64,000 nt of DNA from a virus, in the IMG/VR virus record IMGVR_UViG_3300031965_000001, positions 7,267 through 71,266 of that record, one strand, 5' to 3'. The notes below the pieces were generated by a model. It was not told where the DNA came from. It worked only from the letters and a program-made list of their open reading frames with translations, and searched no databases. Both the position numbers and the translations under genes were made by a program. Below are positions 352 to 54,687 of the stretch, piece after piece (positions within the stretch are counted from its first letter, which is position 1; every line of letters starts with the position of its first letter).

Positions 352-1238
352 TTGCCCCAGTGTAATTTCTCCCTCTCTTTTAGTTTCTCAACTTCTTCAT
401 CCGACCACCCTGGCATCGGCATAAATTGATCTATCAGCCAAGAAAGAGGATATTTTTGGTCTTGCCAAACTTTTTCTCCTGCGAAGAATCGCATATTCAT
501 ATTTCTACCTTGTTTAAGCCAGCTACCATTCAAAGAGTATCCTCTACCATATTTTTTGCCCTTGTGCAAGTGAAAAAAATGCGCCTTTTTATTTGTCATA
601 ACCATCCCATCTCCTGCTAGATATGCCCGGAATGAAAGTTCTTGCGCCTCGCTCCAAAATGGTCCCCAATTTTTATCATCCATAAGACCAAGTTTCTGAA
701 AGTATTTTTTTGGCATCATCCAGCAACTCCCTTGAAATCCTATGTTTGGCGAAATCAATTCATCTTTTTTTTCTCTCGATCTCTCATCCCACTTTCTTCC
801 ATTTAATCCTGCCCCACCATAATCAGATGGGTTGTCTGGGAATGAAAGATACTCATAATCAATATGAGGCTTCCCCACATCCTGTTCACACCAATTCTCA
901 GCATCAAGGCGTCTTCGTTGTGGGATAACCACCCAATTGTCTTCGCACTCAGACGTTAAAACTTCATCAAACCCTTTTGACACGGAACAGTGACCGTCGA
1001 TCTTCACAAGATAATCTCCCTTTGCTATTGCTGCACAAGAATTTATTCCAGCCCTCATACCCATCGGTATCCCTTTATGTATATAAATAACCCTCGGATC
1101 GTCAATAGGATCACACCAATACCCATCGAGCGACACGATCACCTCAACATCTCCAGTACAGTTTTGTAAAATATCACGAATCGTATTGTCGAGGAATTTT
1201 TCATTGCGGGAAGGTATTAAGAAGGATGTCTTGGGCAT
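348..1238 (-). CDS. Glycosyltransferase family 2 (GT-A)
   Basis: SFLIPSRNE start, VIVSLDG, GMRAGINSCAAIAKGDYLVKIDGHC (DxH/DxD region), GSCWMM. Confidence 0.85.
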   Translation of the reverse strand: MPKTSFLIPSRNEKFLDNTIRDILQNCTGDVEVIVSLDGYWCDPIDDPRVIYIHKGIPMGMRAGINSCAAIAKGDYLVKIDGHCSVSKGFDEVLTSECEDNWVVIPQRRRLDAENWCEQDVGKPHIDYEYLSFPDNPSDYGGAGLNGRKWDERSREKKDELISPNIGFQGSCWMMPKKYFQKLGLMDDKNWGPFWSEAQELSFRAYLAGDGMVMTNKKAHFFHLHKGKKYGRGYSLNGSWLKQGRNMNMRFFAGEKVWQDQKYPLSWLIDQFMPMPGWSDEEVEKLKEREKLHWGK

Positions 1239-1247
1239 GAATGAATT

Positions 1248-1913
1248 CTAACCAATCCCATAAGCTGCCGCAAGGAATTTTTCTACCTCTGTAATATCTG
1301 CGTTTTCTGGAAGACTGCACTTCTCAAATTCCTCTTTACAGTGTTCCTCTAGCTGAAAAATCCTAGAAAAAATATCGCTGTCTGACTTTAGCCCGTTTTT
1401 TATTTGTACTAATTCCTCCAAGACTCCACCAGAATACTGCCCTATCAGTTCTCCTGTCTTCAAAAGATGCAACAGCTGGTATAGGGTTCTAACATGGGCA
1501 CAAGCATATTTGTATTTTCTGTTATCCCTTATGCCGTCATGGTCACGGAACTTTTTCTCCTGATTTTTCGAGTATCCTAAAAAGGCGTGAAAGCACCTTT
1601 TTGATAGGAATTTTGGTAATAATTTCTTCAAATCTTCGCCTAGAGGCGTCGTTGTTTTCGGAAGACCAACTAATACCTCTAAGGAAGATGGATTGCCCTG
1701 AGCGCACATTTTTAGGAACTTACATAATTCGTATGCAGTTGCATCCGTGTTCTCACCCTCAACCCAATGAGAATCCTTGACCGTTCTAAAAGGAGAAATA
1801 ATTTCGATAGGAGAAACCATAAAAACACCCCTTATATCTTCGTCGCTCTCTGGCGTGGCAGTACCGTGTAACCTAGAGCCGACGATGGTTGTGAGGATGA
1901 AATTCTTTTTCAT
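1248..1913 (-). CDS. Pol-beta superfamily nucleotidyltransferase (RlaP-like)
   Basis: GSRLHGTATPESDEDIRGVF = GS-x(10)-DxD motif. Start moved to ATG 1913, 1 nt after the PNK stop. Confidence 0.8.
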   Translation of the reverse strand: MKKNFILTTIVGSRLHGTATPESDEDIRGVFMVSPIEIISPFRTVKDSHWVEGENTDATAYELCKFLKMCAQGNPSSLEVLVGLPKTTTPLGEDLKKLLPKFLSKRCFHAFLGYSKNQEKKFRDHDGIRDNRKYKYACAHVRTLYQLLHLLKTGELIGQYSGGVLEELVQIKNGLKSDSDIFSRIFQLEEHCKEEFEKCSLPENADITEVEKFLAAAYGIG

Positions 1914-1914
1914 C

Positions 1915-2787
1915 TTAGAAATCATAATTAGGGTCTCCAACCTGAAAAACGTGAAGCCCCATTTTTCTCCATGCGTCACAAACTCTCGGTCGGTCGTCCA
2001 CAATAAACCTAGGGTTGAATTTTCCTCTTATATTTTCATCAAACATTCTAGTCTTAATCAATGCATCGTTCTCTGTATTACCCTCTGGTCTTATAAAGAA
2101 ATGGTGGTATTTTATTCCGTGTTTTTCGAGCCACTCCTTCGTTTCTTTTTCGCAAACCCCATCCCTTCCTGTCAAAATAATAATTTGATAACCAAGATCG
2201 TAATATGTTCTAGCCATGTGAGCAACTGGCTCGTTGACATCATCTTCTCCTACTCTGGACCAGTCGAAAGGTCCACGGTTTTTCATCAAAGCAAGCGTAC
2301 CGTCAGCGTCGAAAATTGCAGCATCAGGGAGCGAGTCGTCCATTTCATAACTATGCCTATGCACCTTCGGTCGTATGTACTGATTATACATTTGCATAAT
2401 CACCTTAACACCAACAGGATTTTCTCTTTTTGAGTCTCTATCAATACAAACATCAAGGGGGGTATCGAATTCTTTAATTTCAAAGTCTGCGCCATGAAAT
2501 TCTGCGAGAGAACGATATCTCTCTTCGTGGTAAGGATTGAAGTTTGTAGAATCTATTATCGGGATTCGACCAGATTCCAATGCCGCCTGTGCAATCGAAA
2601 ATTCAAACGCCTGAATCATTTTTTCCTTCGCCTTGCTCCATTTTCCATCGTGGAACATTTTTCTTAAATCATCTTTTGAAATTCTGACATATTTTATGGG
2701 GTCTTTTTCGACCAACGAACGGGCGTGTGTGCTTTTTCCAGAACTGGGTAAACCTCGTAAAAAATATATCTTTACCTTATTTACCAT
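1915..2787 (-). CDS. pseT: Polynucleotide 5'-kinase/3'-phosphatase (T4 PseT-like)
   Basis: P-loop RGLPSSGKST, RISKDDLR, HAD motif FDADGTLA, TGRD, VDDRPRV. Start placed at ATG 2787. Confidence 0.92.
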   Translation of the reverse strand: MVNKVKIYFLRGLPSSGKSTHARSLVEKDPIKYVRISKDDLRKMFHDGKWSKAKEKMIQAFEFSIAQAALESGRIPIIDSTNFNPYHEERYRSLAEFHGADFEIKEFDTPLDVCIDRDSKRENPVGVKVIMQMYNQYIRPKVHRHSYEMDDSLPDAAIFDADGTLALMKNRGPFDWSRVGEDDVNEPVAHMARTYYDLGYQIIILTGRDGVCEKETKEWLEKHGIKYHHFFIRPEGNTENDALIKTRMFDENIRGKFNPRFIVDDRPRVCDAWRKMGLHVFQVGDPNYDF

Positions 2788-2788
2788 T

Positions 2789-3886
2789 TTATTCTTCATC
2801 TTTAGAGAACGGTAGTGAATAAGGAGGCTCAACCATTTTCCATATAATTTCAGAATAGTCCTTTCCATCATACATGGAAAATAGGATGGAACTATACTCA
2901 CCACCCATTGCTCTTGCCATAGACGCAAAGTATTTTTTCCTCTCTTTTTGATCTTTTATTTTTTTCATCGAACTCATATCCATAATTGCTTCAAGTGTCT
3001 CCTTAGCCTGAGATTCTATATCGTTGTAATCGAATTCTATGTCCCTATATACCTTATTTGCCCATCTGAAAAATTCATCTGGCATTCCCTCTATCAGTTT
3101 CAATATGTCATCACCATTCTTCATGCCTTCCCAAATCTTTCGAGAGCTTGTCTGCGTTAAAATAGAGTGGAACCTGACATATTCTGGCAATTTGATTTTT
3201 ACTCTCAGATCGTCTTCAAATTTAACAACAACCCCTTCATTTTGCCCATCATCTATTGCAGAATCCAAATATTCATCTTTTGAAAGTTCAAATTTTTTCA
3301 CAATAGGAAACCCTACATTCTTAGCCACAGCCTCACAATATTTTCTGCCCATACTCTTCCCTGTCTCATTATCCAAAACATCTAGGAGTATAAGTTCCTC
3401 AAAATTATATTTTACGACGATTCTATTTTGTGGGTGAATTAACTCGAATAAAAGACTTTTCCCCTCTGGGAATCTAAAAATTGGCAAATATTTCTCAAGG
3501 AATAAATTCTTTCCAATTTCTGCTTGGACTGATTTGAAACTACCGACCGTGGAGAAACGCAAAAAACCACCGTACTTAAAAACCATAAAAAGAGATCCGT
3601 CCATTTTTTCCGTCACCTCATATTTTTTACTCCAATCTATTTTTTGCAATATAATCCCGTCGTGTTCTGAGTCGTTGAAAAATTTTCTAAATCCCCTCGC
3701 AACAACATTCCCACCATCGTCGAGAACCAATCCCCTACAAATTATAGAAAGATCGTCCCATTTTCTTTCGTAGGCACATTTTGCTGTGTATTTATATATT
3801 GTGAGCGGTAATCTGCTGTGCCGAGATGATCTAACGAGACCGCGCTCCACTAGATCATTTATTTTTTCTATGTCAACCCTCGTCAT
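2789..3886 (-). CDS. rnlA: RNA ligase 1 (T4 RnlA-like)
   Basis: CRGLVLD, adenylation motif TEKMDGS, LFELIHPQNRIVV, EGVVV, RVKIK. Confidence 0.9.
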   Translation of the reverse strand: MTRVDIEKINDLVERGLVRSSRHSRLPLTIYKYTAKCAYERKWDDLSIICRGLVLDDGGNVVARGFRKFFNDSEHDGIILQKIDWSKKYEVTEKMDGSLFMVFKYGGFLRFSTVGSFKSVQAEIGKNLFLEKYLPIFRFPEGKSLLFELIHPQNRIVVKYNFEELILLDVLDNETGKSMGRKYCEAVAKNVGFPIVKKFELSKDEYLDSAIDDGQNEGVVVKFEDDLRVKIKLPEYVRFHSILTQTSSRKIWEGMKNGDDILKLIEGMPDEFFRWANKVYRDIEFDYNDIESQAKETLEAIMDMSSMKKIKDQKERKKYFASMARAMGGEYSSILFSMYDGKDYSEIIWKMVEPPYSLPFSKDEE

Positions 3887-4181
3887 TTTTAAGAGAAGAA
3901 AGCATATTTTCGACTGCTTTTCTACTCTCTTCTTTCTCTTCTACTAGTTCTTTTGGTGGATACTCCTGATCTAAACCTATAAGAAAAAATCCATATTCAA
4001 AATACTGGAATTGACATGTTTCGAGGGATATTCGCGTAGCCTCCTGTTTGCTATCTGCGACCATCATGCAACTTCCCTTTTTGAGCTGTTCTTTTGTTGA
4101 CATCGCGCTTGCAAAATCCATATAGCCCCTCCATTTCCCATCAGGACATTCTAAGACGACGAGGACATTATCTGCTGACAC
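3873..4181 (-). CDS. Hypothetical protein
   Basis: ORF packed in an operon with neighbours, GTG start. Confidence 0.6.
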   Translation of the reverse strand: MSADNVLVVLECPDGKWRGYMDFASAMSTKEQLKKGSCMMVADSKQEATRISLETCQFQYFEYGFFLIGLDQEYPPKELVEEKEESRKAVENMLSSLKNDEG

Positions 4182-4366
4182 TATCTTTGTTGGGCAAGTT
4201 TTTGCAAAAGAACCTCACTCTCCCACTCATTCCTAGCCCAAGAAATGAAATCCTCTCCGTTCTCGTACCTCTCAACCACCCCACCCTCCTCATATGATTC
4301 CATCCATTCTGACTCTAATTCTTCCCTGTTCTCTTCCAGCCACAAATCGAAACTGATATGTTCCAT
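4181..4366 (-). CDS. Small acidic hypothetical protein, leaderless
   Basis: 61 aa; ATG lies 6 nt after a TAGTAT -10 box. Confidence 0.65.
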   Translation of the reverse strand: MEHISFDLWLEENREELESEWMESYEEGGVVERYENGEDFISWARNEWESEVLLQKLAQQR

Positions 4367-4372
4367 GTGTAA

Positions 4373-4401
4373 ATACTAGCAGATATTTCTACAAAAATCA
4401 A
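4373..4401 (-). promoter_or_regulatory. Sigma70-type promoter
   Basis: TTGATT-17 nt-TAGTAT, then 6 nt to ATG 4366. Confidence 0.7.
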
Positions 4402-4405
4402 TAGC

Positions 4406-4675
4406 TCAGAGCAACAATTTTACATAGATGTCATCCTTATTTAATCCTGTCTCATGAGCAGCAACTGACGCAAATTGATAGATAATCTGATCCAATACAT
4501 AATCTAAAGAATCCCCAGATGTAGAATCCCATAAAAAGTCAAGAGTCCTGATGCTGGCCAGCATAATGTCTGATATTCGAGCGATCCCGTTTTCTGACGC
4601 ACCATTCTCTACCATTGTTTCTCTGCATGAAACATACGCATTAGCAAGCCGCTGTTTTCTAGTTTGCTCAACCAT
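4406..4675 (-). CDS. Hypothetical protein
   Basis: Start placed at ATG 4675 (MVEQTRKQ), overlapping the upstream stop. Confidence 0.6.
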   Translation of the reverse strand: MVEQTRKQRLANAYVSCRETMVENGASENGIARISDIMLASIRTLDFLWDSTSGDSLDYVLDQIIYQFASVAAHETGLNKDDIYVKLLL

Positions 4676-5228
4676 TTTCTTTGGAGAGGAACTTGATTTC
4701 TTTGTCCGCGAATTCCGCAATTCCCGAAATTTCAGCCTCTGATGATTTTTGAAAAAAATAATCGACATTAATTCTAAGGTTCCTATAGGGCGTTTTACTC
4801 ATTCCAAATTTAAGAAGCATCATTTTCATCAGGTTCTTATATTGCTCTTCTCTGGGGGTAAATACTACCCCGCCATCACACATCAACATTGACAGTGCTC
4901 TTCTGCTCGGACAGTGAATTCTAAAAACATATCTTATCTTTATTGATTTTTTCCCGTTTAACCTCTCTCCCCGCTTACATAGCTTGTCCATATTTGGATC
5001 AATCAGAGCGACTGAATATTTCCCCATGAATTCAGCGGCTCTCAGAAATGCCTTTTGTGTTACCGAAATATAGGAACACGATTCCTCTTCTGGTGGGGAA
5101 TTCAATCGAACTATTTTTGATTCAACCGTCTCTCCGTTACAAAGAAATTCATACGCACCGATGGCGATGTCTCCTTGCTTCTTTGCATACACATAAATAT
5201 CTGATATGAACTCTGCCTCGTATTGCAT
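4668..5228 (-). CDS. Hypothetical protein, possible degenerate RNase H fold
   Basis: Pattern resembles RNase HI (IYVYAK..GAYEF; QKAFLRAAE; terminal FADKEIK) but most catalytic acids are absent. Confidence 0.3.
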   Translation of the reverse strand: MQYEAEFISDIYVYAKKQGDIAIGAYEFLCNGETVESKIVRLNSPPEEESCSYISVTQKAFLRAAEFMGKYSVALIDPNMDKLCKRGERLNGKKSIKIRYVFRIHCPSRRALSMLMCDGGVVFTPREEQYKNLMKMMLLKFGMSKTPYRNLRINVDYFFQKSSEAEISGIAEFADKEIKFLSKENG

Positions 5229-5237
5229 GAAAAGACA

Positions 5238-5420
5238 TTACACTTTTTTAATCCAGTGTTCAAATACTTTTATTGTTTCTCCATCCTCTGTTTTCATAAA
5301 ATACCGTGGGGTTCCGCACATATCTTCTTTTTCACCCGTATACTCCAAAAGGGTACCGATTGGGATACCCTTTGGGTTACTATTTATGATCTTAAATTTG
5401 TCACCTTCTTGCCAGTCCAT
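5238..5420 (-). CDS. Small hypothetical protein
   Basis: 60-aa ORF in operon. Confidence 0.55.
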   Translation of the reverse strand: MDWQEGDKFKIINSNPKGIPIGTLLEYTGEKEDMCGTPRYFMKTEDGETIKVFEHWIKKV

Positions 5421-5427
5421 GCTGCGA

Positions 5428-5961
5428 TTATAGCTGAGATACCAGCATTTTCAATATCTGATTCTTGGATTCCTTTGTTAGATTGCAATTTAAGACATCT
5501 CTCATTACTGAGAAATTTTCTTTTTCTGATTTCTCAACTTTCTTTTCTTGCTCTTTGGTCTTTGGGCTTTCTATTTTAGTTATTTTTTGTTGCCCCTTGT
5601 CCTGAAAAGCATCAATAAAAGATTGAAGTTCAGAGTGAAATTTCTTAGTCGTACTTTTTCTATGCCCTTTTAGAACTTGGCATAGGCTTTCTGGAGTAAG
5701 GCTGATATATTCTCTACCAATCTGTTTTTGGGAAAGGCCAGAGGATTCAATTGCGCTAGATAACCTCTTTCTAAGGTCGCTATTTATTTTAACGAGCGGA
5801 ACGCCGTTTCTTTTTTTAATAGTGTACGATCTTTTTTTCTTGGAACGACCATATTTTTCTAATTTGCTATTTTTTGAGACTACACCGACTGTTGTTATGG
5901 GGGGGGGTGTGACCACCGGACTGAAAGTATCCATGATTTTTTTTGGGAAAAAATTAATCAT
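5428..5961 (-). CDS. Putative HTH DNA-binding protein
   Basis: XRE-like segment LSSAIESSGLSQKQIGREYISLTPESLCQVLKG; own promoter TTGACT-17-TAGTAT at 5996-5968. Confidence 0.55.
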   Translation of the reverse strand: MINFFPKKIMDTFSPVVTPPPITTVGVVSKNSKLEKYGRSKKKRSYTIKKRNGVPLVKINSDLRKRLSSAIESSGLSQKQIGREYISLTPESLCQVLKGHRKSTTKKFHSELQSFIDAFQDKGQQKITKIESPKTKEQEKKVEKSEKENFSVMRDVLNCNLTKESKNQILKMLVSQL

Positions 5962-5967
5962 GTAAAA

Positions 5968-5996
5968 ATACTAGCATAGCCAAATAACAAAGTCAA
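5968..5996 (-). promoter_or_regulatory. Sigma70-type promoter with extended -10
   Basis: TTGACT-17 nt (ending TGC)-TAGTAT-6 nt-ATG 5961. Confidence 0.75.
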
Positions 5997-6514
5997 ATCT
6001 TTTTCTTCAGTGCTGCTCCTAATTTGGAGTACCGATCCAAGGTTTGATAATAGTAACGATGCAAAAACCGAAGTGAAAATGCCTCTTGAATACCCCTTGC
6101 CTGTATCAATTTCCATAACCAGATCAGGCGGCCACATCGTCCGTTCAGGTCTTCACACGGATGAATGTATTCATATTCATTGTGTGCTTTCCATGCGTCC
6201 ATCTCATCAAAATTCTCCCAAAATTTATCCATTAACTTTTGAACGTCTCTCCAGTCTGGGCAAACATGATTGCCAATCTGAACACTGCATCTCCTGTATT
6301 CCCCCTTATACATCAAGCTGCGACCTTCTGATAAAGATAAGTGAAGCTCTAAAAATTCCTTTTCTCCTATCTTCTCATACTCCAAAAATTTCTTTGCAGC
6401 ACTAACATCGTTTCTATTAAGAACACCTATCCAATTCTTTTCGTCTTCAAGTTCAAACTCTATGGCGTTCGACTCGCGCATGAACTTTTCAATAAGATTT
6501 TCGGGGATTTCCAT
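5993..6514 (-). CDS. Fic/Doc family protein
   Basis: HPCEDLNGRCGR matches the Fic motif HPFxDGNGRxxR; ESNAIE; YRRCSVQIG. Confidence 0.85.
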   Translation of the reverse strand: MEIPENLIEKFMRESNAIEFELEDEKNWIGVLNRNDVSAAKKFLEYEKIGEKEFLELHLSLSEGRSLMYKGEYRRCSVQIGNHVCPDWRDVQKLMDKFWENFDEMDAWKAHNEYEYIHPCEDLNGRCGRLIWLWKLIQARGIQEAFSLRFLHRYYYQTLDRYSKLGAALKKKI

Positions 6515-6520
6515 GGGAGA

Positions 6521-6549
6521 ATACTAGCAGTTTTTTCCAACGAAATCAA
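6521..6549 (-). promoter_or_regulatory. Sigma70-type promoter
   Basis: TTGATT-17-TAGTAT-6 nt-ATG 6514. Confidence 0.7.
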
Positions 6550-6608
6550 CCACTTTTTTCTGTACCAGAGTAGTGGCAGTATTCCTTAGCTGCCTCCAAA
6601 AGTTTCAG

Positions 6609-6914
6609 CTATCTCTTCTCGATGTCCAAAAGAAAAATCCTGTATTTCTGTGCCTCATTAGCAAGAACATAACGAAATTGGTTAATCTTCTGAGCCTTCG
6701 TGCATCGTGCCGCACCAGTCTCCTCTAGGTACTGGAGGCTTTCTTTCACCTCCTCATCCAATTCGACCCGAAACTCCCAAAAAGACCTCTGCAACCTCGC
6801 CCTCTCATTCTCGCACGCATCTGAGATTTCTCTCGACAGTTCATCTAGCTCATTTGAGTCTGATGGAGCGGAGTTAATCATGTGGTTCATGTCAACGGAT
6901 GTCCATTCGCTCAT
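6609..6914 (-). CDS. Hypothetical helical protein
   Basis: 101-aa ORF. Confidence 0.55.
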   Translation of the reverse strand: MSEWTSVDMNHMINSAPSDSNELDELSREISDACENERARLQRSFWEFRVELDEEVKESLQYLEETGAARCTKAQKINQFRYVLANEAQKYRIFLLDIEKR

Positions 6915-6986
6915 GCTCCAATATTAACACACGCGTCAAGATTTCAAAAATCCCCCCCTTGTGTAAATACCTCGTCATGGTGTACG

Positions 6987-7814
6987 ATGGTATTTGTGTC
7001 GGCTCCTAAAAAGAGAAAGGGCGAAGACGACTACTACAAGGTAGTAATTATTAGCGACCCCCATGCACAATTCTTAGACCAAAAAGCATTTAATCTATTC
7101 TTACAAATTTATACAGAAAATAAATTTGACCTTCTCGTTTGCAACGGTGACTTCATGGATTTCCCAACACTCTCGTCTTTCGCTAAGAGAATTGAGACCT
7201 TTAACCCATATATCATTAAAGAATATAGCCTTGGAGAAGAAATTGATTTCGTCGAAAAAAATATATTAGACCCCCTTCATAACGCACAAAAAAATACACC
7301 AAAATTATTCAGGATAGGAAATCACGAAAAGCGCTTCCTCCGACCAGTCAGAGACAACGCCACTGCCCTGTCTGAAATCCTCGAAGAGTGCAGAAAAAGA
7401 GGATCAACAAAACTAGAAGAATTACTACACTTTGACAAATATAACACAAAAATCAGCTACCGACATACCGATATTCTTAGGGGAAAATTTGCACTAATCC
7501 ACGGTACACACCTTGGACAAAATAGATGCGAAAAATACCTCAGAGAATTTATGATGTCTGGTACGAGCGGACATTCACATCAGGGTCTCCGAGGAGAAAA
7601 AACAATATACGGGAAACAGGGAATAGAATGGGTAGAGAGCTTTTGTCTGAGAACAATAAAAAATATCGAATATATGGAAGAGGGGATGATACCAAATTGG
7701 TCACACGGATTCGTAACGGTATGGTTCAAAAAGGGAAGCGACCGTATGCACATCAAACAACATAAATTCAATGGGTACGAGTGTGAGTTCCACGGAAAGG
7801 TTTACCGCTCTTGA
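6987..7814 (+). CDS. Calcineurin-like metallophosphoesterase
   Basis: SDPH, NGDFMD, GNHE, IHG, GHSH motifs; start placed at ATG 6987. Confidence 0.85.
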   Translation: MVFVSAPKKRKGEDDYYKVVIISDPHAQFLDQKAFNLFLQIYTENKFDLLVCNGDFMDFPTLSSFAKRIETFNPYIIKEYSLGEEIDFVEKNILDPLHNAQKNTPKLFRIGNHEKRFLRPVRDNATALSEILEECRKRGSTKLEELLHFDKYNTKISYRHTDILRGKFALIHGTHLGQNRCEKYLREFMMSGTSGHSHQGLRGEKTIYGKQGIEWVESFCLRTIKNIEYMEEGMIPNWSHGFVTVWFKKGSDRMHIKQHKFNGYECEFHGKVYRS

Positions 7815-7875
7815 GTTCTGAGGCACATGCCATGGATGAACCGAGAAGCCACTTGGTCTTTAGCCTAGTGGTAGT

Positions 7876-8202
7876 TCACTTATTCTTCTCTTTTCCTAGA
7901 ACCCTTAGAAGGAAAGCGCCAAAATCATTATTAAAATATCCTAAAGTGGTTCCCATGAGGGCATGTAAGAAAAAAGGCGTTTGTGAATCGTTAAATTGAA
8001 AAATTGCATTTGTTACTGATAAAGTCCATAAAATAATAATAATCGTATTAACGATAGCAATGGCAGCTTTTCTGCCCTCAATCCTAGTGACATCTACCCC
8101 TATCAACCCTCTCATAATCCAGCCAAAAACAACCCCTACTGCAAATCCAATTGCGAGAGCTGTAAAACTATCAATAAATTGTAAAAAGGCGTAGTCGATC
8201 AT
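7876..8202 (-). CDS. Small multi-pass membrane protein (holin candidate)
   Basis: Three hydrophobic segments and a basic C-terminus. Confidence 0.45.
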   Translation of the reverse strand: MIDYAFLQFIDSFTALAIGFAVGVVFGWIMRGLIGVDVTRIEGRKAAIAIVNTIIIILWTLSVTNAIFQFNDSQTPFFLHALMGTTLGYFNNDFGAFLLRVLGKEKNK

Positions 8203-8624
8203 GTTGGGTATGTAATAGTCTTCACCGCCCCCTTCTTAAATTCAACGACAAAGTGATTATCACATCCATGTTGTATATCATGGACAGCCCCTCCAGCAAA
8301 AAACAATCTCACAGTTCCATAATATTTTCCACTTAGGCTTTGGGAATCAGTGGGCGTTATCGGTATCTCTAAAATCCCCAATGAAATATCTATGTCATCG
8401 GTATCTTTCGTGAGAACCGCATCTGCGTCTGCGTCACCGATATTTCTCTTGAGAAGAAAAAGAACATCTTCGATAGCCGCTGGGTCAATATCCTGCTTTC
8501 TATCTTCTGTCACTGACCACCCTTTTGAATAGGTCAACTCTATCTGAATGACCCTATTGTTCCCCGATGGTGCTATAGCCTTTGACATATAGATATTATA
8601 TGTCAACTCTCCAATTTTACCCAC
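8199..8624 (-). CDS. BppU-N-like beta protein, possible virion component
   Basis: VLFLLKR...GILEIPITPTDSQSLSGKYYGTVRL resembles baseplate-upper N-terminal domains. Confidence 0.4.
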   Translation of the reverse strand: MGKIGELTYNIYMSKAIAPSGNNRVIQIELTYSKGWSVTEDRKQDIDPAAIEDVLFLLKRNIGDADADAVLTKDTDDIDISLGILEIPITPTDSQSLSGKYYGTVRLFFAGGAVHDIQHGCDNHFVVEFKKGAVKTITYPT

Positions 8625-8710
8625 AGATTATGTATTGCTAAGAAATTATTGCATTTCGTGGAAAAATGTGCTACACTTCCCATATATTATCACCTATTTC
8701 TCAATTAAAT

Positions 8711-12597: not shown

Positions 12598-12702
12598 TCG
12601 TATCATTTTGATACGATTTGACAGAATAGCCCTAAAGGTGGATAGGGGGTCTTTGTTCTAAAATTGGTTGAATGGTGGAAAGATTTATATTATGGTGGGG
12701 GT

Positions 12703-13294
12703 ATGAGACCTGTGAACAGATTAAACATAGAGAATGGACAAAAGTTCAATAAGTGGACAGTTATTAGGGAAGAAGATCCAGTCATATATAGCAACGGAAA
12801 AAGAAAAAGACTTTTCCTATGTAGGTGTGAATGTGGGAAAGAGAATGTTGTACGCCTTGATAATATTAAAAATGGTAGGTCTCTATGCTGCATGAACTGC
12901 AAAAATGTTTTTCGAGCACACAGTATGTCTAAAACCGAAGAACATAATATATGGATGGGGATACAGAACAGATGCTATAACTCCAAGGGGAAACCACATA
13001 AAAATTACGGAGGAAGGGGTATATCAATGTGTGAATCATGGAAAAATGATTTTATGGAATTCTATAACGACATGGGGCCAAGACCGTCAAAAAAACATTC
13101 TATTGATAGAATTGATAATAATGGGAATTATTGCAAAGAAAATTGTAGGTGGGCAACGCAGGAGGAACAAAATAGTAATACTAGACAAAATTTCTATATA
13201 ACACACAACGGAGAAACTAAAACATTGGCTCAGTGGGAAAGGAAAACTGGTATATCCAAAACAGCAATAAAATACCGTATAAATTTTAAAAAAA
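12703..13294 (+). pseudogene. HNH endonuclease, 5' part, interrupted by the IS1595 element
   Basis: GQKFNKWTV, CRCECG, YGGRGI, SIDRIDNNGNYCKENCRWAT; frame continues at 16749 once the insertion is removed. Confidence 0.88.
13287..13294 (+). repeat. 8-bp target site duplication, left copy
   Basis: TAAAAAAA, identical to 16741-16748. Confidence 0.9.
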
Positions 13295-13395
13295 GGCGAC
13301 TATCCCTTGGAAGCTAGGACACTATGATTTACTCTCTTACTGTGACAGGCGGACTATGGCAGTAGACCCTTTCATTATTGGCTTCTGGCTCGGCG

Positions 13396-13743
13396 CTATT
13401 TTTTCTTTCTTTTTGACTTCGGTAGCTTCAGCACTGGTGTATCTCCGTCTTCGGCATTACCCAAATCATTAGCCGATAGTTCCATCGGTTCAGAAGTGCC
13501 ACTTTCTTTTGAGTATCCTTTTGAGTGTTGTAGTTTTGCAATCTCTTCACGTTGCTGTTCAATTTGACTATATTGACCTTGGATTTGTTGTCCTTGGTAT
13601 TCATGCTCCCTTACAAATCTCCCCACTCTATAGCTCCCGTAACAAATAGCAGGAATGACTACGACAAGAAATCCCCAGTTGCCCACAATACATTGCCACG
13701 CAAAACTTGCTATTTGTTCTACGTCTGGCGGGACATTGCTCAT
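13396..13743 (-). CDS. IS cargo: membrane-anchored hypothetical protein
   Basis: One TM helix then a Gln-rich coil. Confidence 0.6.
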   Translation of the reverse strand: MSNVPPDVEQIASFAWQCIVGNWGFLVVVIPAICYGSYRVGRFVREHEYQGQQIQGQYSQIEQQREEIAKLQHSKGYSKESGTSEPMELSANDLGNAEDGDTPVLKLPKSKRKKK

Positions 13744-14003
13744 TTCTTCTTTGGCAGTGAAACTTTAAGTTCGCCATATTTCTTTTCGTATTCCTCTATT
13801 TTTTCCTGTAAACGAAGCATTAACTTCTTAGCATGTTTTGGAGTAAATACGTACTGTCCATCAACAACAGAGCCTGTCTGTAATGCCAATATAAAGTGTT
13901 CTTCGTTAAACAAGACAAATGCCCTGTCACAAAAATAGCGACGCGGATCGCCAATTTCTACTTTTACTGTTTCTTCGTCATTCTGCTTTGTGGGTTTTGC
14001 CAT
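13740..14003 (-). CDS. IS cargo: DUF3467-like small protein
   Basis: RYFCDRAFVLFNEEHFILAL...FTPKHAKKLMLRLQEKIEEYEKKYG pattern. Confidence 0.55.
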   Translation of the reverse strand: MAKPTKQNDEETVKVEIGDPRRYFCDRAFVLFNEEHFILALQTGSVVDGQYVFTPKHAKKLMLRLQEKIEEYEKKYGELKVSLPKKK

Positions 14004-14043
14004 AGTGAAATGGGGAAAGAAACTAGACGATAGTATCAGTCTG

Positions 14044-14697
14044 TTATCTTTTGCTCCACCTATCTTTTACTTTTTTGAAGTATTCAATTCTGCTATCAAT
14101 CTTTACGATTTCTCTCGGATAAAAAGAGAGCATTACATCACACAGTTCAATCATCCAATCCTTTCTACTGTAATGTGAGTTAACAAGAATCTTGTTGGAG
14201 TTGGCAATCTGAATTTGCCCCCACCCCAATGCACCTACAGTAAGACATTCCCAAGATAAAAATTCGATAGGAACAAAATGAACCTTATCCACTTCAATAT
14301 GATTTTCATTCGCTGAGTATGCAACCATCAATATCACAAAGTAGTTTTTATCATCTTCATAGAATCTTGCCAGCCTCTCAACGGATGTTAAGTTTGGCAT
14401 ATTAAAGTGTGTATCCATTCTATGTGTTTTAATATCAACAACATGGTAGCATGAATTCTTGTCTGTGAATGCAACATCAGCCATTGCTCTTCGTGCAAAG
14501 TCAGAAGAGTATTCGGAAATATATTTGCCAAGAATTTTATCAAAATTGTCCTCCAAAACGCTTTGTATTGCATCACCTACTGCACGAGGGCTTGATATTG
14601 TTCTGGCTGATAAAAAGTCCTCTTCTGCGTTCAGAAAATCCTTTATCTTTTTTTGGATAGAAACATACTTATCTGTGCTGAATATAATGCTGCTCAT
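14044..14697 (-). CDS. IS cargo: type II restriction endonuclease, PD-(D/E)XK
   Basis: ADVAF...VDIKT catalytic pattern; PNLTSVERLA and QIQI recall HincII-type enzymes; TAATG overlap with the MTase stop. Confidence 0.7.
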   Translation of the reverse strand: MSSIIFSTDKYVSIQKKIKDFLNAEEDFLSARTISSPRAVGDAIQSVLEDNFDKILGKYISEYSSDFARRAMADVAFTDKNSCYHVVDIKTHRMDTHFNMPNLTSVERLARFYEDDKNYFVILMVAYSANENHIEVDKVHFVPIEFLSWECLTVGALGWGQIQIANSNKILVNSHYSRKDWMIELCDVMLSFYPREIVKIDSRIEYFKKVKDRWSKR

Positions 14698-15692
14698 TAC
14701 GAAACCAGAGAAAATAAGTCTGCTTCCTGTTGTACCCTATTTGGCTTGCCTTTCTTCTGGTCTGCAAGCGAATTCCTTTCCCAAAATACTCCATCACAAT
14801 ATCCCTGAATAGAGTTATCACCTTCTGCCATTTCTAGCCTTCTTTCAGTCAAACATGCGTAAAGTTTGTCGCTTTCCACTCCACAATATCTCCTTCCTAA
14901 CTTCTTAGCTACAACCGATGTTGTACCAGAGCCAAGAAACGGATCAAAGATCATATCACCCTCTTTGGAGCTTGCCAGTATTATTTTAGCAATGAGCTTT
15001 TCAGGTTTTTGTGTTGGATGATCTGTATTTTCTGGCATTGACCAGAAGGGAATGGAAATATCAGTCCAGAGATTGGAAGGTGATGTCAGACGGTAATTCC
15101 CATTTTCTTCTGATTGCCAGTCCTTAGCCTCTCCATTTTCATTTTTATATGGAGCTATCACTTTCTTTTTCAATTTAACTTCTTCCACATCGAAGAAAAA
15201 ATCATCACCTAACGTTCCGTACCAAATATCCTCAGAGCAGTTTTTCCAGTTAGTTTTTGCCCCACGACCTTTTTCTCTTTCCCATGTAATTCTATTTCGT
15301 ATGGTAAAATACTTCGACATTACGCGTTCTACTGCACTAGATGATTTCCAGTCGCAACAGACATATACGGAAGCAGTAGGCTTGAGTATTCTTGTAAGTT
15401 CAGATAGCCATGAATCTACATATTGTTTGTAATCATTATCCTGCATCTTCTTAAAAGAATTGGAATTAAACGTCTTATTTAAGTTGTACGGCGGATCAAT
15501 CACCAACAAATCAACGAAATTATCTGGTAAGCAATGTACTGCTTCAAAAAAGTCCTGATTTATCGTTTTACCATACAAGTAATCAGGTGTCACCCTTTCC
15601 TTTAATTCTATTAGATTGTGTGACAGTCTTTTCATTTCCTGTTCATCTAGCGTAATAGTTTTATTGCGTTCTGCACGAATTTTGTTTTCCAT
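14697..15692 (-). CDS. IS cargo: beta-class N6-adenine/N4-cytosine DNA methyltransferase
   Basis: DPPY precedes HPTQKP and FDPFLGSGTT. Confidence 0.93.
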   Translation of the reverse strand: MENKIRAERNKTITLDEQEMKRLSHNLIELKERVTPDYLYGKTINQDFFEAVHCLPDNFVDLLVIDPPYNLNKTFNSNSFKKMQDNDYKQYVDSWLSELTRILKPTASVYVCCDWKSSSAVERVMSKYFTIRNRITWEREKGRGAKTNWKNCSEDIWYGTLGDDFFFDVEEVKLKKKVIAPYKNENGEAKDWQSEENGNYRLTSPSNLWTDISIPFWSMPENTDHPTQKPEKLIAKIILASSKEGDMIFDPFLGSGTTSVVAKKLGRRYCGVESDKLYACLTERRLEMAEGDNSIQGYCDGVFWERNSLADQKKGKPNRVQQEADLFSLVS

Positions 15693-15764
15693 AAAACGAA
15701 GGGGTAATTGACCTCATACTAGCGACATTTATTTCTAGTAGCAAAAAATGCTATAATCCCCTAC

Positions 15765-15929
15765 ATGCCAGACCATTCCACTGACCAGAACAGCTTCTTT
15801 AGGCTCCTCAACCTTGCCGCTACGACACGCGTGAAAGGAGAAGATCGAAAAGATGGTTTCCACTCTTCCGATGATTGTAACGCCACTGAAATTCAGAAAC
15901 ATAAGCGTGGAGCATCTTCGGAGAAATAA
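15765..15929 (+). CDS. Putative 54-aa leaderless ORF convergent on and overlapping the transposase 3' end
   Basis: TGC-TATAAT at 15749-15757, 7 nt to ATG; MPDHSTDQNSFFRLLNLAATTR... Confidence 0.4.
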   Translation: MPDHSTDQNSFFRLLNLAATTRVKGEDRKDGFHSSDDCNATEIQKHKRGASSEK

Positions 15930-16677
15930 CGTGATGCGTACCGTCTAGGCTGCGTTTTAGTTGGCTCCAAAAGCCTTCAATGGTGTTTGTATGCGTTCCA
16001 TTCTCTTTGGCGTACTGCTTAGCTCCATGCTGTACCGTGTCATGCTCCATTTCCAGTAGTGTTGCGATTTTCTTGTAGGTCTTGAGTTCATCGGTCATAA
16101 CTTTCGTACCCTTGGCGATATTGTTTTGGAAGTGTGGAAGCAAGGTTGACGCTCTTACGTTCTCTACAACGGAAGCGTTCATTTTGCCCTTTCTCTGTAC
16201 GGCTCCAAACACAATCGTTTTTCCTTCTGCTCCACGCCCACGTTTACCTTTTCGCTTACCACCTACAGCCGTTTCATCGGCTTCTACTTCCCCGAAAAGC
16301 ATTGTGGCATTCTCCTTCATTAGCTTCCGTACTTGATGCCCGATTCTATAGGCGCATTTGTAGGTAACGTCCAAAGCCCTCTCCAGTTCCTTCGCTGATA
16401 CACCATTGCGAGATTGAGAGAAAAGAAAGATGGCAAAAAACCACTTCACAAGGTCTGTAGAAGAATGGTCAAAGATCGTTCCCTCCTTCGGGAAGATGTG
16501 AGAGCAGCCGTTCTTACAGGTGTAGCAAGCCCGTGTAGGGTGCTTGTAGAACTTTGTCTCCCCGCATTTCGCACACTTTGGTTCGGGGAAGCGTGCGTTG
16601 AAGAGATATGCCAGACAGGTGTTGTTATCGGGGAATCTCTTGTGGAAGTTGAGAACAGAGAGGCGTTGTGCTTTCAT
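15820..16677 (-). CDS. IS1595-family DDE transposase
   Basis: Zn ribbon CAKC...CKNGC, VEADET, MTDE, TNTIEGFWSQLKR, EFQWRYN. Confidence 0.95.
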   Translation of the reverse strand: MKAQRLSVLNFHKRFPDNNTCLAYLFNARFPEPKCAKCGETKFYKHPTRACYTCKNGCSHIFPKEGTIFDHSSTDLVKWFFAIFLFSQSRNGVSAKELERALDVTYKCAYRIGHQVRKLMKENATMLFGEVEADETAVGGKRKGKRGRGAEGKTIVFGAVQRKGKMNASVVENVRASTLLPHFQNNIAKGTKVMTDELKTYKKIATLLEMEHDTVQHGAKQYAKENGTHTNTIEGFWSQLKRSLDGTHHVISPKMLHAYVSEFQWRYNHRKSGNHLFDLLLSRVS

Positions 16678-16740
16678 AGGTGAGTAGGAATGTACCTATA
16701 GTCTAGCTTTTACCTTCCTAGTCGTCAAGGGATAATCACC

Positions 16741-16748
16741 TAAAAAAA
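16741..16748 (+). repeat. 8-bp target site duplication, right copy
   Basis: TAAAAAAA. Confidence 0.9.
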
Positions 16749-16966
16749 TGTCAGCAGAGGACGCACTATCAACACCTACTGACAAAATTAAATATGATAA
16801 TGCAAAAAAGATAAGATATAATGGACAAACAAAAACTATATCAGAATGGTCTATGGAAACTGGTCTCCCCTGCTATCTTATTTACAAAAGAATAGAAAGT
16901 GGATGGGACACTGAAAAAGTTCTAACAACAAAACACAAAAAATACAAAAAAAGAGGGAGATGTTAA
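16749..16966 (+). pseudogene. HNH endonuclease, 3' part (DNA-binding repeat)
   Basis: Joined read AIKYRINFKK-MSAEDALSTP; YNGQTKTISEW repeats HNGETKTLAQW of the 5' part. Confidence 0.85.
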
Positions 16967-17613: not shown

Positions 17614-17796
17614 ATGAACAAAGGGAAATCTCGACGGGCATCTAAACATAAGAAAAGCGGAAAGTATTCTAAGACTTTCAGTCGTTCGGTAAAAAAGAAT
17701 GGTATGTGGAGAGGGAAAGTTGTGGACAAAATTGTTCATGATGCCTACCTTTCTGAACTCCGCCAAAAAACTAAGGCAGTCTCGGCAAACGGCTAA
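17614..17796 (+). CDS. Small basic hypothetical protein
   Basis: 60 aa, Lys/Arg-rich. Confidence 0.4.
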   Translation: MNKGKSRRASKHKKSGKYSKTFSRSVKKNGMWRGKVVDKIVHDAYLSELRQKTKAVSANG

Positions 17797-18376
17797 CAAC
17801 GACAGCCAGCTCCTCTCTTGTAACAAAATCAGTGGGTCTAAATAGCCCATCTTCGCCCCCCTTCATTATCCCCTTTTCTTTGCAATAGCGAACGGCTTCC
17901 TCGCTCCATCTTCCTATCTCTACGTCTGGGAATACTGGGATCGGTATGGGAATAGATGTATCTAGTTTAATGTTGGAAAAAGGTCGATATTGGTTGATTC
18001 TATAGGTATTTTTTACCAATTTCGCTGGAAAAACGAGCGGGTCAATCATTTGCTTCGTATCGTTGTTATAGCAAAAGAAATGTGTTTCATAGCCTTGATC
18101 TGCATAATCTCTTGTTCTCGCGATACACCACCCATCTGGAGGAGTATTGGTAGCCCCCAATGCCCTACCCCCGCAATATTTTGCTATTGTATCTGAAAAT
18201 ATAAGACCAGCATCATTAAATGCTCCATTCACTACCAATAATTCTGTAGGATGTTTCTGATAAAGATTCGCTAAGGAAACGAGAAAACAGCCAAATCCAG
18301 AAACCCGAAGATTGCTTCTGCCAAGGCTAGCATTTTGATAGCTAGGGTCGCGCTGCGAATGCAAAAAGGTTGTCAT
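17771..18376 (-). CDS. Peptidase C39-like domain plus C-terminal SLH domain (endolysin candidate)
   Basis: HSQRDP...GCFLVSLA...THF; SLH FPDV...WSEEAV...GIMKG...FRPTDFVTREE; promoter TTGCCC-17-TATAAT-7-ATG. Confidence 0.72.
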   Translation of the reverse strand: MTTFLHSQRDPSYQNASLGRSNLRVSGFGCFLVSLANLYQKHPTELLVVNGAFNDAGLIFSDTIAKYCGGRALGATNTPPDGWCIARTRDYADQGYETHFFCYNNDTKQMIDPLVFPAKLVKNTYRINQYRPFSNIKLDTSIPIPIPVFPDVEIGRWSEEAVRYCKEKGIMKGGEDGLFRPTDFVTREELAVVVSRLPRLP

Positions 18377-52627: not shown

Positions 52628-53436
52628 CTGTACGGGCAGAAGAAATTATTAGAACAACTGGGCAAATTATATTTCCCCTCCATCATATCCTTACATATCG
52701 ACATGCCCCGCTTCGTATCTTCATAGAACCCAACAAGATCTTTCATTGTAAATTCTACTGGCTGGTTCGATACGGTCGCATCCTTATTACCATTCTTTTT
52801 AATCAATGAAATAACATCTATCATTGGAATTTCCCCAGTAACAGCCCATCCGAAATAACAATACCCCTTGAATTGATATGAATTCATACACTTGCTTTTT
52901 GTCCATTTTGTTGTGCCACTCTTAAAGTCCGCTATTCTCATCTTTTGCCCCTTTAATCCATCATTAGATAAAATTTTACTCAGGTCGATGATCCCATAAA
53001 GAGGAATATCTAAAAATTCATTCGGATTCTCTGGATGACGAATCCATGTTAGAAATTCTTTTTCTGGCGATCCATCTCTTAGTCCTAATGTATCTAATTT
53101 TTCTTTCAGAAGCCGAACATGGGTCTCTATTTGATCAATATACTCCAGACCAGCCCTCGCTGCTATCTCCGCTTCCTCTGGCAAATCTTCCCCCTTTATC
53201 GCAAGCTCTATTACATAATGAACAAGCTCCCCATATCCATAAATATGCTTCTTGTCCTTAAATGGATCTTCCTGTTCTTTCTTAATGTATTTTCTGTAAA
53301 AGCATGATGGACAGGATTTCAACATGTTGTGTCGAGTCGCGCTCCAGTAGAATGGTAGTTCTTCTGATTTCTTCTTCGCTGGAGTACCGTACCATGTTGG
53401 AATTTTCTCAGTCAATAGGTAACTATTCCCTAACAT
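52624..53436 (-). CDS. PD-(D/E)XK nuclease (RecB/Cas4-like); start codon now supplied by the mobile element end
   Basis: WSAT...CP, YGELVH, GIIDL...IADFKSG, QFKGY, C...FCPYR. Confidence 0.85.
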   Translation of the reverse strand: MLGNSYLLTEKIPTWYGTPAKKKSEELPFYWSATRHNMLKSCPSCFYRKYIKKEQEDPFKDKKHIYGYGELVHYVIELAIKGEDLPEEAEIAARAGLEYIDQIETHVRLLKEKLDTLGLRDGSPEKEFLTWIRHPENPNEFLDIPLYGIIDLSKILSNDGLKGQKMRIADFKSGTTKWTKSKCMNSYQFKGYCYFGWAVTGEIPMIDVISLIKKNGNKDATVSNQPVEFTMKDLVGFYEDTKRGMSICKDMMEGKYNLPSCSNNFFCPYR

Positions 53437-53560
53437 ATAGTTTGGGGAACTCTACGTTTCACAGGGCGAGTAACTCTCACACAGTCCCGTAGGGCTGTGC
53501 TACCATCTCCTCCCTCCGCGTCTTGGTTGGCACCCAACCAGTGCTTCAGAACCATTTTGG
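53400..53560 (-). ncRNA. Predicted TnpB omega RNA (scaffold plus flank-derived guide); boundaries approximate
   Basis: Hairpins TGGTTGG/CCAACCA, CACAGCCC/GGGACTGTG and TTCCC/GGGAA over the tnpB 3' end; position expected for omega RNAs. Confidence 0.6.
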
Positions 53561-54687
53561 CAGCGTTAATGTCTCTGTCGTGTTTTGTAGAACACTTTGG
53601 ACATTCCCATTGCCTTATTGATAATGGAAGCGATTGACACACGAAATTACACTGTGAGCAGGTCTTCGAGCTTGGGAAGAAGCGACCAACTTTCTCTACT
53701 GAGTTGCCACGCCACTTCTGCTTATACTCCAACTGTCTGATGAATTCACTCCATGAGGCATCCCCTATGGATTCCGCAAGGCAATGATTCTTCATCATGT
53801 TGCTCACTGCCAAATCTTCACAGACGATGACAACGTGGTTCTTGTTTGCCAACTTCTTCGAGATATGGTGTAAGTGATTAGATCGTGTGTTTTTTATTTT
53901 CTTGTGAAGTCTAGCTACTTTTAATTTGGCTACAGTACGGCTCTTTGATCCTTTTTGTTTTCTTGAAAGACCCTGTTGAATCTTCTTCATTTCTTTTTTT
54001 AGACTCTTCTTTGGATGGATGTTCTCGTACTTCTTTCCATCACTGGTAATAGCAAGGTGGGTGAGTCCAAGGTCAAGACCTATGGGGTCTTTCTTTTTTC
54101 CTCTTGGTTCTTTCATTTCTTCCTCTGAAACAATCGTAGCCCACCAGTCCCCACAGGCATCTACCTTGATTGTAACGGAGTAATTCTTATTGTCCTTCGG
54201 AGGGGGGTTCCCCTTAAAATAAATGGAAAGACCACGTTCTATATGTAATTTCTTTCCATTGATTCTCCATCTATCGGGTTTTCTGAAGGATTGGTTTGGA
54301 TTGTACTTGGATTTGAATTTAGGATAATTTGCCCTCTTCTCAAAGAAGTTTTTGTATGCTGCATCTAAATCTCGGAGAGATTGCTGAAGGGGGTGTGTCT
54401 GCGCTTCTCCAATCCATTTATACTCATCCTGCTGCTTTAGTTTTGTTAGTGCCATAGCAGTTTCATGGTAGTACATTTTTTCTCCTCTCTCTAAATAGGC
54501 TGTTTTTCGTTCATTAAGAAAGTAGTTCCAAACAAATCTACACGCTCCGAAGGTTTTCCTTAGCTTCTCCTCTTGATACTTTCGAGGATAGAGCTTGAGC
54601 CTATAGGTCTTTTTTACTTCCATGATTGAATGGTACACGGATGATATGGTTGTGTCAATAGTTACTATACTATAGGGAATAGTCACG
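53418..54687 (-). mobile_element. Non-autonomous TnpB element with TIRs and 8-bp TSD, 1270 bp
   Basis: 24-bp TIRs GGTAACTATTCCCTAACATATAGT and CGTGACTATTCCCTATAGTATAGT (19/24); flanks AGTCAATA 53410-53417 and AGTTAATA 54688-54695; removal restores MEILTEKIP. Confidence 0.82.
53430..54623 (-). CDS. tnpB: TnpB RNA-guided endonuclease
   Basis: HTH YRLKLYP...FGACRFVWN; RuvC GLDLG, VCEDL, DRDINAA; Zn finger CSQC/CPKC; all three acids intact; promoter TTGACA-17-TACCAT-6-ATG. Confidence 0.95.
   Translation of the reverse strand: MEVKKTYRLKLYPRKYQEEKLRKTFGACRFVWNYFLNERKTAYLERGEKMYYHETAMALTKLKQQDEYKWIGEAQTHPLQQSLRDLDAAYKNFFEKRANYPKFKSKYNPNQSFRKPDRWRINGKKLHIERGLSIYFKGNPPPKDNKNYSVTIKVDACGDWWATIVSEEEMKEPRGKKKDPIGLDLGLTHLAITSDGKKYENIHPKKSLKKEMKKIQQGLSRKQKGSKSRTVAKLKVARLHKKIKNTRSNHLHHISKKLANKNHVVIVCEDLAVSNMMKNHCLAESIGDASWSEFIRQLEYKQKWRGNSVEKVGRFFPSSKTCSQCNFVCQSLPLSIRQWECPKCSTKHDRDINAAKMVLKHWLGANQDAEGGDGSTALRDCVRVTRPVKRRVPQTIC

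Follow-up and report, generated by a model that had tools for sequence, protein, structure and literature searches.

How did an insertion sequence loaded with a putative type II restriction-modification (R-M) system come to lie inside an HNH endonuclease gene of a phage, from which bacteria could it have come, and what might it do there? The locus is part of a 64,000-nucleotide stretch (the window; bases 7267-71266 of the 105,910-bp IMG/VR record IMGVR_UViG_3300031965_000001), in which the element occupies positions 13295-16740, or 3446 bp. Intact insertion sequences are rarely seen in phage genomes. The reading that we hold to be probable, with good confidence, is that the element is an intact IS1595-family transporter insertion sequence (tIS), with a Peribacteria-type backbone and a type IIP R-M cargo under a promoter of the phage's own family, and that it links the phage to a Peribacteria-like host.

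The anatomy of the element (Table 1) is that of an IS1595 member: a DDE transposase with a zinc ribbon, imperfect 25-bp terminal inverted repeats (19 of 25 positions are equal when the left repeat, IRL, is compared with the reverse complement of the right repeat, IRR), and an 8-bp target-site duplication. A 15-nt end core, GGYGAYTATCCCTTG, occurs in the window only at the two element ends; the outermost 41 nt at IRR are identical to the end of a related element (L116), and IRR is overlapped by a promoter-like site on the minus strand (TTGACG-17-TAGACT, 16728-16700). Five open reading frames (ORFs), all intact and all on the minus strand, fill the space between the ends: one transposase and, between it and IRL, four passenger genes, in the same place where sister elements vary their cargo, as is characteristic of a tIS (Siguier, Gagnevin and Chandler, 2009, as cited in PMC2853133; TnCentral preprint, 10.1101/2021.05.26.445724). 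An initial annotation, made from the letters of the window, had already called the locus an IS1595 transporter element with four cargo genes between transposase and distal repeat; the transposase profiles, the 25-bp ends, the perfect 8-bp TAAAAAAA duplication and the passenger genes, as ORFs and by family matches, bear this out, and every coordinate that it gave proved correct. The element is single-copy in the whole record. In the Logan assembly of the probable source run, a soil metagenome, one 22-kb contig covers 12300-17400 with zero differences, and neither alternative junctions nor an uninterrupted variant were found among the Logan contigs of that run.

Table 1. Features of the element and of the interrupted gene (window positions).
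Feature	Position	Strand	Basis or remark
HNH endonuclease gene, 5' part	12664-13294	+	210 native codons, plus 7 into the element, to 13317
Left target-site duplication copy, TAAAAAAA	13287-13294	.	direct reading; identical to 16741-16748
IRL, distal terminal inverted repeat, 25 bp, GGCGACTATCCCTTGGAAGCTAGGA	13295-13319	+	
115-aa passenger protein: one hydrophobic helix, Q-rich middle, K-rich tail	13396-13743	-	ORF
DUF3467 passenger protein, 87 aa	13740-14003	-	PF11950, 3e-7
Type II restriction endonuclease (predicted), 217 aa, EcoRV/SwaI-like PD-(D/E)XK fold	14044-14697	-	predicted structure
Beta-class amino-methyltransferase, 331 aa, DPPY motif	14697-15692	-	PF01555
Promoter-like site before methylase, TTGCTA-N15-GC-TAGTAT	15716-15744	-	motif match
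IS1595-family transposase, 285 aa, full length, N-terminal zinc ribbon	15820-16677	-	profile matches
IRR, transposase-proximal terminal inverted repeat, 25 bp	16716-16740	-	
Right target-site duplication copy, TAAAAAAA	16741-16748	.	direct reading
HNH gene, detached 3' part	16748-16966	+	72 codons; second copy of DNA-binding repeat

What was the gene that received the insertion, and was it destroyed? Deletion of 13295-16748 in silico joins ...INFKK to MSAEDALSTP... in a single 282-aa ORF, exactly the rejoining that had been proposed. The 5' part matches phrog_374 (4e-57) and has its H...N...N motif upstream of the insertion; the gene also matches phrog_3377 (8e-50), likewise annotated as an HNH endonuclease, to which the 3' part matches as well (1.7e-10), and it has no Pfam match. 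A repeat of about 40 residues (NG-TKT...W....G) is present once in each part. Homologues in 80 viral loci gave 99 alignments, of which 25 cross the junction in one piece; this supports a formerly continuous HNH gene and, with the restored frame, upholds the suggested nesting of the element in it, distant as these homologues are. The further suggestion that the HNH gene was “inactivated” is not established: the insertion removes the last 72 residues, leaving the catalytic core and one DNA-binding repeat upstream, and 55 of the 80 homologues are projected to reach just about 6-35 residues past the cut (one ends before it). The HNH homologues in IMG/VR are all at most 45% identical, so that they offer no empty-site phage to examine.

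The lineage of the element was traced through its transposase. The transposase matches DDE_Tnp_IS1595 (PF12762) over positions 2-153 of 153 (1.2e-39), the zinc ribbon PF12760 (5e-6) and the NCBIfam IS1595 model NF033547 (1.1e-60, above its cut-off). When one genome per prokaryotic species was scanned, eight loci came up, six of them with at least 58% identity; five of these six are in Candidatus Peribacteria/Peregrinibacteria metagenome-assembled genomes (MAGs), four at 81-83%. Five MAGs of 1.0-1.4 Mb have one close copy each, to which two add a much weaker, distant match. In a collection of 5.8 billion proteins, every named relative is labelled Peribacteria, Peribacter, Peribacteraceae or Peregrinibacteria. 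The best match there (P0122; 91% amino acid and 80% nucleotide identity) is on an unbinned 1150-bp contig with different cargo behind it, and a quick tree places the phage transposase as its sister, within a clade that includes four named Peribacteria/Peregrinibacteria copies (99% support in the Shimodaira-Hasegawa-like approximate likelihood ratio test). No relatives besides this record were found in IMG/VR, and no transposase above 83% identity in the metagenome and genome scans, the 91% match having come from the large protein collection. The lineage thus appears to be one otherwise named only in Peribacteria/Peregrinibacteria, ultra-small bacteria of the candidate phyla radiation (CPR), and this is one of the new points of the analysis. 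In the sixth of these loci (L003) the transposase is 83% identical, but its contig, of 3.5 kb, was assigned to a “Gammaproteobacteria” MAG; in view of all the other matches, that assignment probably reflects a mistake in binning.

More than ten related elements, from Peribacteria and metagenomes, keep the end core GGCGACTATCCCTTG at their ends. They are 1.67 to 3.7 kb long, and eight of them (L002, L004, L005, L006, L097, L101, L103 and L104) are flanked by perfect, AT-rich 8-bp duplications: TTTTTTTT, TAGAAAAA, ATTTTCAA, TAATATTT, TAATTTTA, AATTATTT, TTCTTTTG and TTAAATTT. The backbone is conserved in two parts only, one from IRR to a point some 45 bp beyond the stop of the transposase gene and the other over about 27 bp at IRL, and the stretch between these parts is an exchangeable cargo slot. 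R-M genes fill it in about 6 of 13 distinct elements, the window element counted. Apart from that of the window, these systems are type IIG-like R-M proteins with a fused N6-methylase: in L002 (PADLOC REase_MTase_IIG, 1e-47), in each of two elements of L096 (with HSDR_N, one also with Methylase_S), in L110 (S subunit separate), and in L118, where HSDR_N, N6-methylase and Methylase_S are joined in one protein adjoining rpoB. Other related elements hold DUF2335, Bro-N, Peptidase_M78 or unknowns.

Closest in content to the window element are L006, with the same pair of a DUF3467 protein (56% identical to that of the window) and a 115-aa protein, and L101, with a ClpP-like protease, a DUF3467 protein and a small protein. 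The identity of the window's DUF3467 protein is also reflected in its Atlas structure match, to DUF3467 clusters. Its 115-aa neighbour has no match in family searches (Pfam, NCBIfam, PADLOC); L006 and L101 have, behind DUF3467, proteins of similar size (115 and 108 aa, respectively) with the same start/stop overlap and an identity of only 22-32%. In the nearest bacterial relatives the usual cargo is such a DUF3467 / small membrane protein pair, and the window element looks like an L006-type element with an R-M operon added between transposase and DUF3467, the position held in L101 by the ClpP-like gene.

A separate curiosity is the metagenome contig L096, on which two cargo-bearing elements (825-4487 and 4937-8642) lie 450 bp apart, holding different fused type IIG-like R-M proteins of 902 and 865 aa. 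The transposase of the second is 83% identical to that of the window; the first is built around a 49%-identical match and its ends have diverged. The flanking 8-mers are unequal, and a rearrangement is possible.

Is the cargo a complete R-M system? Its methylase matches N6_N4_Mtase (PF01555, 6.5e-40) and PADLOC MTase_II (8e-64), and the order of its motifs, DPPY (residues 66-69) before FxGxG (FLGSG, 252-256), is that of the beta class; N6-adenine is the probable target. The nuclease is harder to place, with no sequence match in Pfam, NCBIfam, PADLOC or PDB sequences, and its homologues (at least 4391, of 64-83% identity, across phyla) are all labelled hypothetical. An AlphaFold2 model built on 22 homologues (predicted local distance difference test 87.4, predicted template modelling score 0.86) resembles SwaI most closely (VIA-align Z 15.3; 188 residues aligned with a root-mean-square deviation of 3.4), then HincII (11.1), EcoRV (10.9) and NlaIV (10.5), after which come BglI and SfiI and then a gap; the Foldseek E value is 6e-7, and the Atlas neighbours are SwaI-like, NgoBV and EcoRV clusters. 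The fold is shared with SwaI, HincII, EcoRV and NlaIV, which form the EcoRV-like, blunt-cutting branch of PD-(D/E)XK type IIP enzymes, over about 175-190 of the 217 residues, with D...D-x-K equivalently placed, although the window nuclease is only 9-17% identical to these enzymes and, unlike them, has no Pfam family. D74, D88 and K90 (D74...D88-I-K90) are invariant in the 22 homologues, and mirror D74, D90 and K92 of EcoRV.

The genomic context of the nuclease is equally consistent. Its ATG overlaps the methylase stop (ATGA), and every homologue examined is directly behind an N6_N4 methylase. The pair with overlapping stop and start recurs in other neighbourhoods (L010, L012), and on three contigs that break off in the region upstream of the nuclease gene (L011, L013, L014) all that is seen there is a gene abutting it in the same way; the paired homologues are 75-77% identical in the methylase and 80-81% in the nuclease, so that the two have diverged together, and occur in unrelated contexts, with an IS110 transposase as neighbour in one case and a SIR2 gene in the other. 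Given the nuclease fold, its invariant residues and the position of its homologues behind the same methylase, the two genes form a type II R-M pair, which moves about as one unit. This accords with the original proposal of a complete type II R-M cargo with a coupled PD-(D/E)XK nuclease; the possibility raised alongside it, that the nuclease might have no restriction-enzyme homologues, is answered by the match of the model to type IIP enzymes.

Which sequence the pair might recognise is a different matter. The closest solved structure to the methylase is M.BceJIV (8urk, 1e-34), a beta-class N6-adenine enzyme with the site GTWWAC (PMC11380664). A recognition site taken from this enzyme, or from the HincII, SwaI and EcoRV folds, was considered and set aside, the similarity being too remote to fix specificity; counts of candidate sites gave no pointer either.

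The R-M operon also has an unexpected promoter. The predicted TTGCTA-17-TAGTAT is found exactly at 15744-15716 on the minus strand and is the sole match in the window, against 0.01 expected. Its downstream part belongs to a wider set: GCTAGTAT occurs eight times in the window against 0.95 expected (4373, 5968, 6521, 10390, 15716, 21685, 45628 and 48345), always on the minus strand, which is the coding strand. Ten of the 12 copies in the whole genome have a TTG-led -35 hexamer at an equal 15+2 spacing, and several share an AGAAA-like spacer, giving a phage promoter family TTGnnn-N15-GCTAGTAT, also written TTGAYTT-N15-GCTAGTAT. Our rough arithmetic puts at about 1e-4 the probability that a site of this kind would fall by chance into the 127 bp ahead of the methylase. 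The site was not found upstream of homologous R-M cassettes, nucleotide similarity to which is confined to the coding region (15570-14045). The operon therefore appears, from these motif matches, to carry a promoter of the phage's own family and is most likely expressed within the phage transcription programme.

What other explanations would account for these observations? An assembly artefact, or a bacterial island in place of a phage, comes to mind for a metagenomic contig whose IMG/VR entry is linear and 70% complete. It can be practically dismissed: a chimeric join could not yield both an exact 8-bp duplication and exact restoration of the frame, and as a second assembler independently reproduces both junctions, such a join is ruled out; phage structural and replication genes flank the element on both sides, and the ends of the contig share a direct repeat of 126-140 nt, as closed circular assemblies typically do. 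Another possibility is that the cargo is an orphan protective methylase, serving in anti-restriction, beside a nuclease-fold protein that is inactive or has some other role. The nuclease's lack of a sequence-family match and of an assigned recognition site would fit, but we regard this as improbable: the model fits type IIP enzymes over nearly the whole protein with Z up to 15.3, the catalytic D...D-x-K residues are invariant, the structural neighbours are clusters of restriction enzymes, and a family conserved at 64-83% across phyla is, in the copies examined, ATGA-fused to the same methylase.

More serious is the possibility that a ready-made R-M-carrying insertion sequence jumped very recently from a host chromosome, its cargo an incidental selfish passenger that knocked out another selfish gene. 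The perfect 8-bp duplication, the five intact genes and the single copy are all as expected on this account, and so is the transposase, which is compositionally foreign and not ameliorated (G+C at third codon positions 0.52; phage genes have 0.37-0.40). A promoter of the phage's family in front of the R-M genes is difficult to reconcile with it, being absent from homologous cassettes and from the sampled Peribacteria DNA. No bacterial copy of the composite was found: a search for the same element in candidate hosts, as had been recommended, turned up only relatives of the lineage in Peribacteria, with transposases at 81-83%, and the closest transposase of all precedes different cargo, so that the “recent host-to-phage jump” of a ready-made cassette in the initial annotation is not shown. 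Megablast of the 4.4-kb region against GenBank phages gave no match, and an IMG/VR scan with the neighbouring helicase no relatives. The element also shares the phage's lack of GGCC and CCGG, a weak point, as Peribacteria copies of the insertion sequence avoid CCGG too. On this evidence a very recent arrival is unlikely, although it keeps appreciable weight, and the phage-family promoter, missing from homologous cassettes, argues for a composite assembled or adapted inside the phage lineage.

The figures for palindromes are as follows. In the element GGCC occurs 0 times against 6.6 expected and CCGG 0 against 3.4; in the phage genome the counts are 50 against 208 and 37 against 129. The phage also avoids several 6-mers (observed/expected: TTCGAA 1/28, ATCGAT 1/28, GAGCTC 0/13, TCTAGA 1/16, AAGCTT 1/13, CATATG 4/29, TTTAAA 9/40), which suggests heavy R-M pressure from its hosts. 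Peribacteria copies of the insertion sequence (L002, L004, L005, L006) avoid CCGG (4 against 25 expected) and several 6-mers, and their chromosomal flanks show no such avoidance, the numbers being small; the pattern agrees with a vehicle whose DNA is often unmethylated on entry into cells. Because these copies avoid CCGG as well, the absence of both palindromes from the element is a weak sign of how long it has resided in the phage.

Several points weigh against the preferred reading. The enzyme activities, methylation at a motif and the transposition event are inferred rather than observed. Neither an identical or near-identical donor copy nor an empty-site phage relative was found in GenBank phages, IMG/VR or the genome and metagenome scans. 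Composition cannot date the cargo, because the methylase and nuclease genes are low in G+C in every context. The link to the host consists of one mobile element and a non-specific argument from SLH domains, and two further routes to it failed: palindrome avoidance is not shared by the chromosomal flanks of the Peribacteria copies, and GCTAGTAT has no occurrence in the 400 kb sampled from two Peribacteria genomes.

Assigning a host to a CPR phage is very difficult; what else does this genome say? Tape measure, portal, head protease/capsid and primase-helicase genes surround the element. Neither an integrase nor a resolvase was found in the phage record, and for this reason there appears to be no sign of lysogeny; a prophage-mediated defence role is not indicated. 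A lysin-like protein (17771-18376, 201 aa) has a C-terminal SLH domain and only nine relatives in the 5.8 billion proteins; the four relative contigs that were fetched all place it beside phage tail genes, three of them on contigs of 42-44 kb. The phages that share the lysin, at 55-62% identity, are distinct from this one, measure 42-44 kb and lack the locus. SLH matches number 17-40 in each of five Peribacteria genomes and occur at all in only 4 of 14 control genomes. With the insertion sequence lineage pointing to Peribacteria, and the SLH lysin consistent with it, a Peribacteria-like host is narrowly favoured. As to the extent of the genome, bases 1-126 of the record recur at 105771-105896, 14 bases from its end, as a repeat of about 140 nt with one small indel; because a terminal direct repeat of this kind is typical of circular assembly overlap, the genome is probably closed, at about 105.8 kb, rather than linear and 70% complete.

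Assuming that the parts function as their families suggest, a single DDE transposase would recognise both 25-bp ends and, with an 8-bp staggered cut, insert the element into AT-rich DNA in the 3' part of the HNH gene, a step supported by the anatomy and by the sister insertions. The R-M operon would be transcribed from the phage-type promoter, methylase first, and translational coupling of the nuclease would let protection precede cutting, as the gene order implies. Phage DNA would then leave each cycle methylated, and unmethylated host or rival-phage DNA would be cut, to blunt ends if the fold is a guide; methylation of phage DNA with restriction of competitors or of host DNA is a plausible role for the pair. 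The DUF3467/membrane pair would be core cargo, with no role assigned to it.

How much of this has precedent? Described IS1595 tIS include MTnSag1/tISSag10 of Streptococcus agalactiae and tISCpe8 of Clostridium perfringens (PMC5704250; 10.1101/2021.05.26.445724). The window element is like MTnSag1 and tISCpe8 in its IS1595 DDE transposase, 25-bp repeats, 8-bp duplication, preference for AT-rich targets, passengers between transposase and far end, and usual presence in one or few copies per genome; it differs from them in carrying a type II R-M operon and a DUF3467/membrane pair in place of a lincosamide resistance gene, and in its location in a phage genome, its Peribacteria (CPR) lineage and the promoter of the phage's family that its cargo has. 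Furuta, Abe and Kobayashi (2010) described transposon-like units that contain R-M genes: one of Neisseria gonorrhoeae, bounded by inverted repeats of 26 bp and an 8-bp duplication, with a type IIG R-M gene, an S gene and a gene with a transposase motif, and a type II unit of Xanthomonas oryzae (PMC2853133). Common to these and the window element are R-M genes within inverted repeats and an 8-bp duplication and, in the Neisseria case, a COG3677-type transposase motif; unlike them, the window element has an intact transposase, many sister elements that define a family, a two-gene type IIP system and a site in a phage gene. The principle, both of IS1595 tIS and of R-M genes in transposon-like units, is therefore already published, and what is new here is the Peribacteria link, the defined cargo slot with its frequent R-M genes, the DUF3467/membrane core cargo and the phage-family promoter.

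Under the reading preferred here, the phage would be tied to Peribacteria-like bacteria by a mobile element whose signature of insertion is unambiguous; a family of IS1595 vehicles whose cargo slot is defined, exchangeable and often filled by R-M genes would provide a concrete mechanism for the horizontal spread of R-M systems, and the phage-type promoter suggests that a phage can co-opt such cargo. A bolder extension, which we offer as speculation and rather doubt, is that the tIS lineage is a dedicated R-M shuttle between Peribacteria cells and phages, its phage-promoter wiring protecting the phage while host DNA (as a nucleotide supply) or rival DNA is cut, and that its transposase may also move in trans a TnpB element elsewhere in the window (53418-54687), which has no such transposase of its own. 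If true, this would give a sequence-based host assignment for a CPR phage of about 106 kb and a concrete path for the spread of defence genes and RNA-guided nucleases by phages.

The TnpB element is a bounded element with TnpB as its only gene (OrfB_IS605, 2.5e-21; Cas12f1-like TNB, 7e-22), homologues of which were not found in the five Peribacteria genomes. Its ends, GGTAACTATTCCCTAAC and CGTGACTATTCCCTATAG, are close to IS1595 ends such as GGTAACTATCCCTTGAC in L002, with one extra T, and the flanking 8-mers are AGTCAATA and AGTTAATA. Judging from these ends, it may be non-autonomous and the partner of the 15820-16677 transposase.

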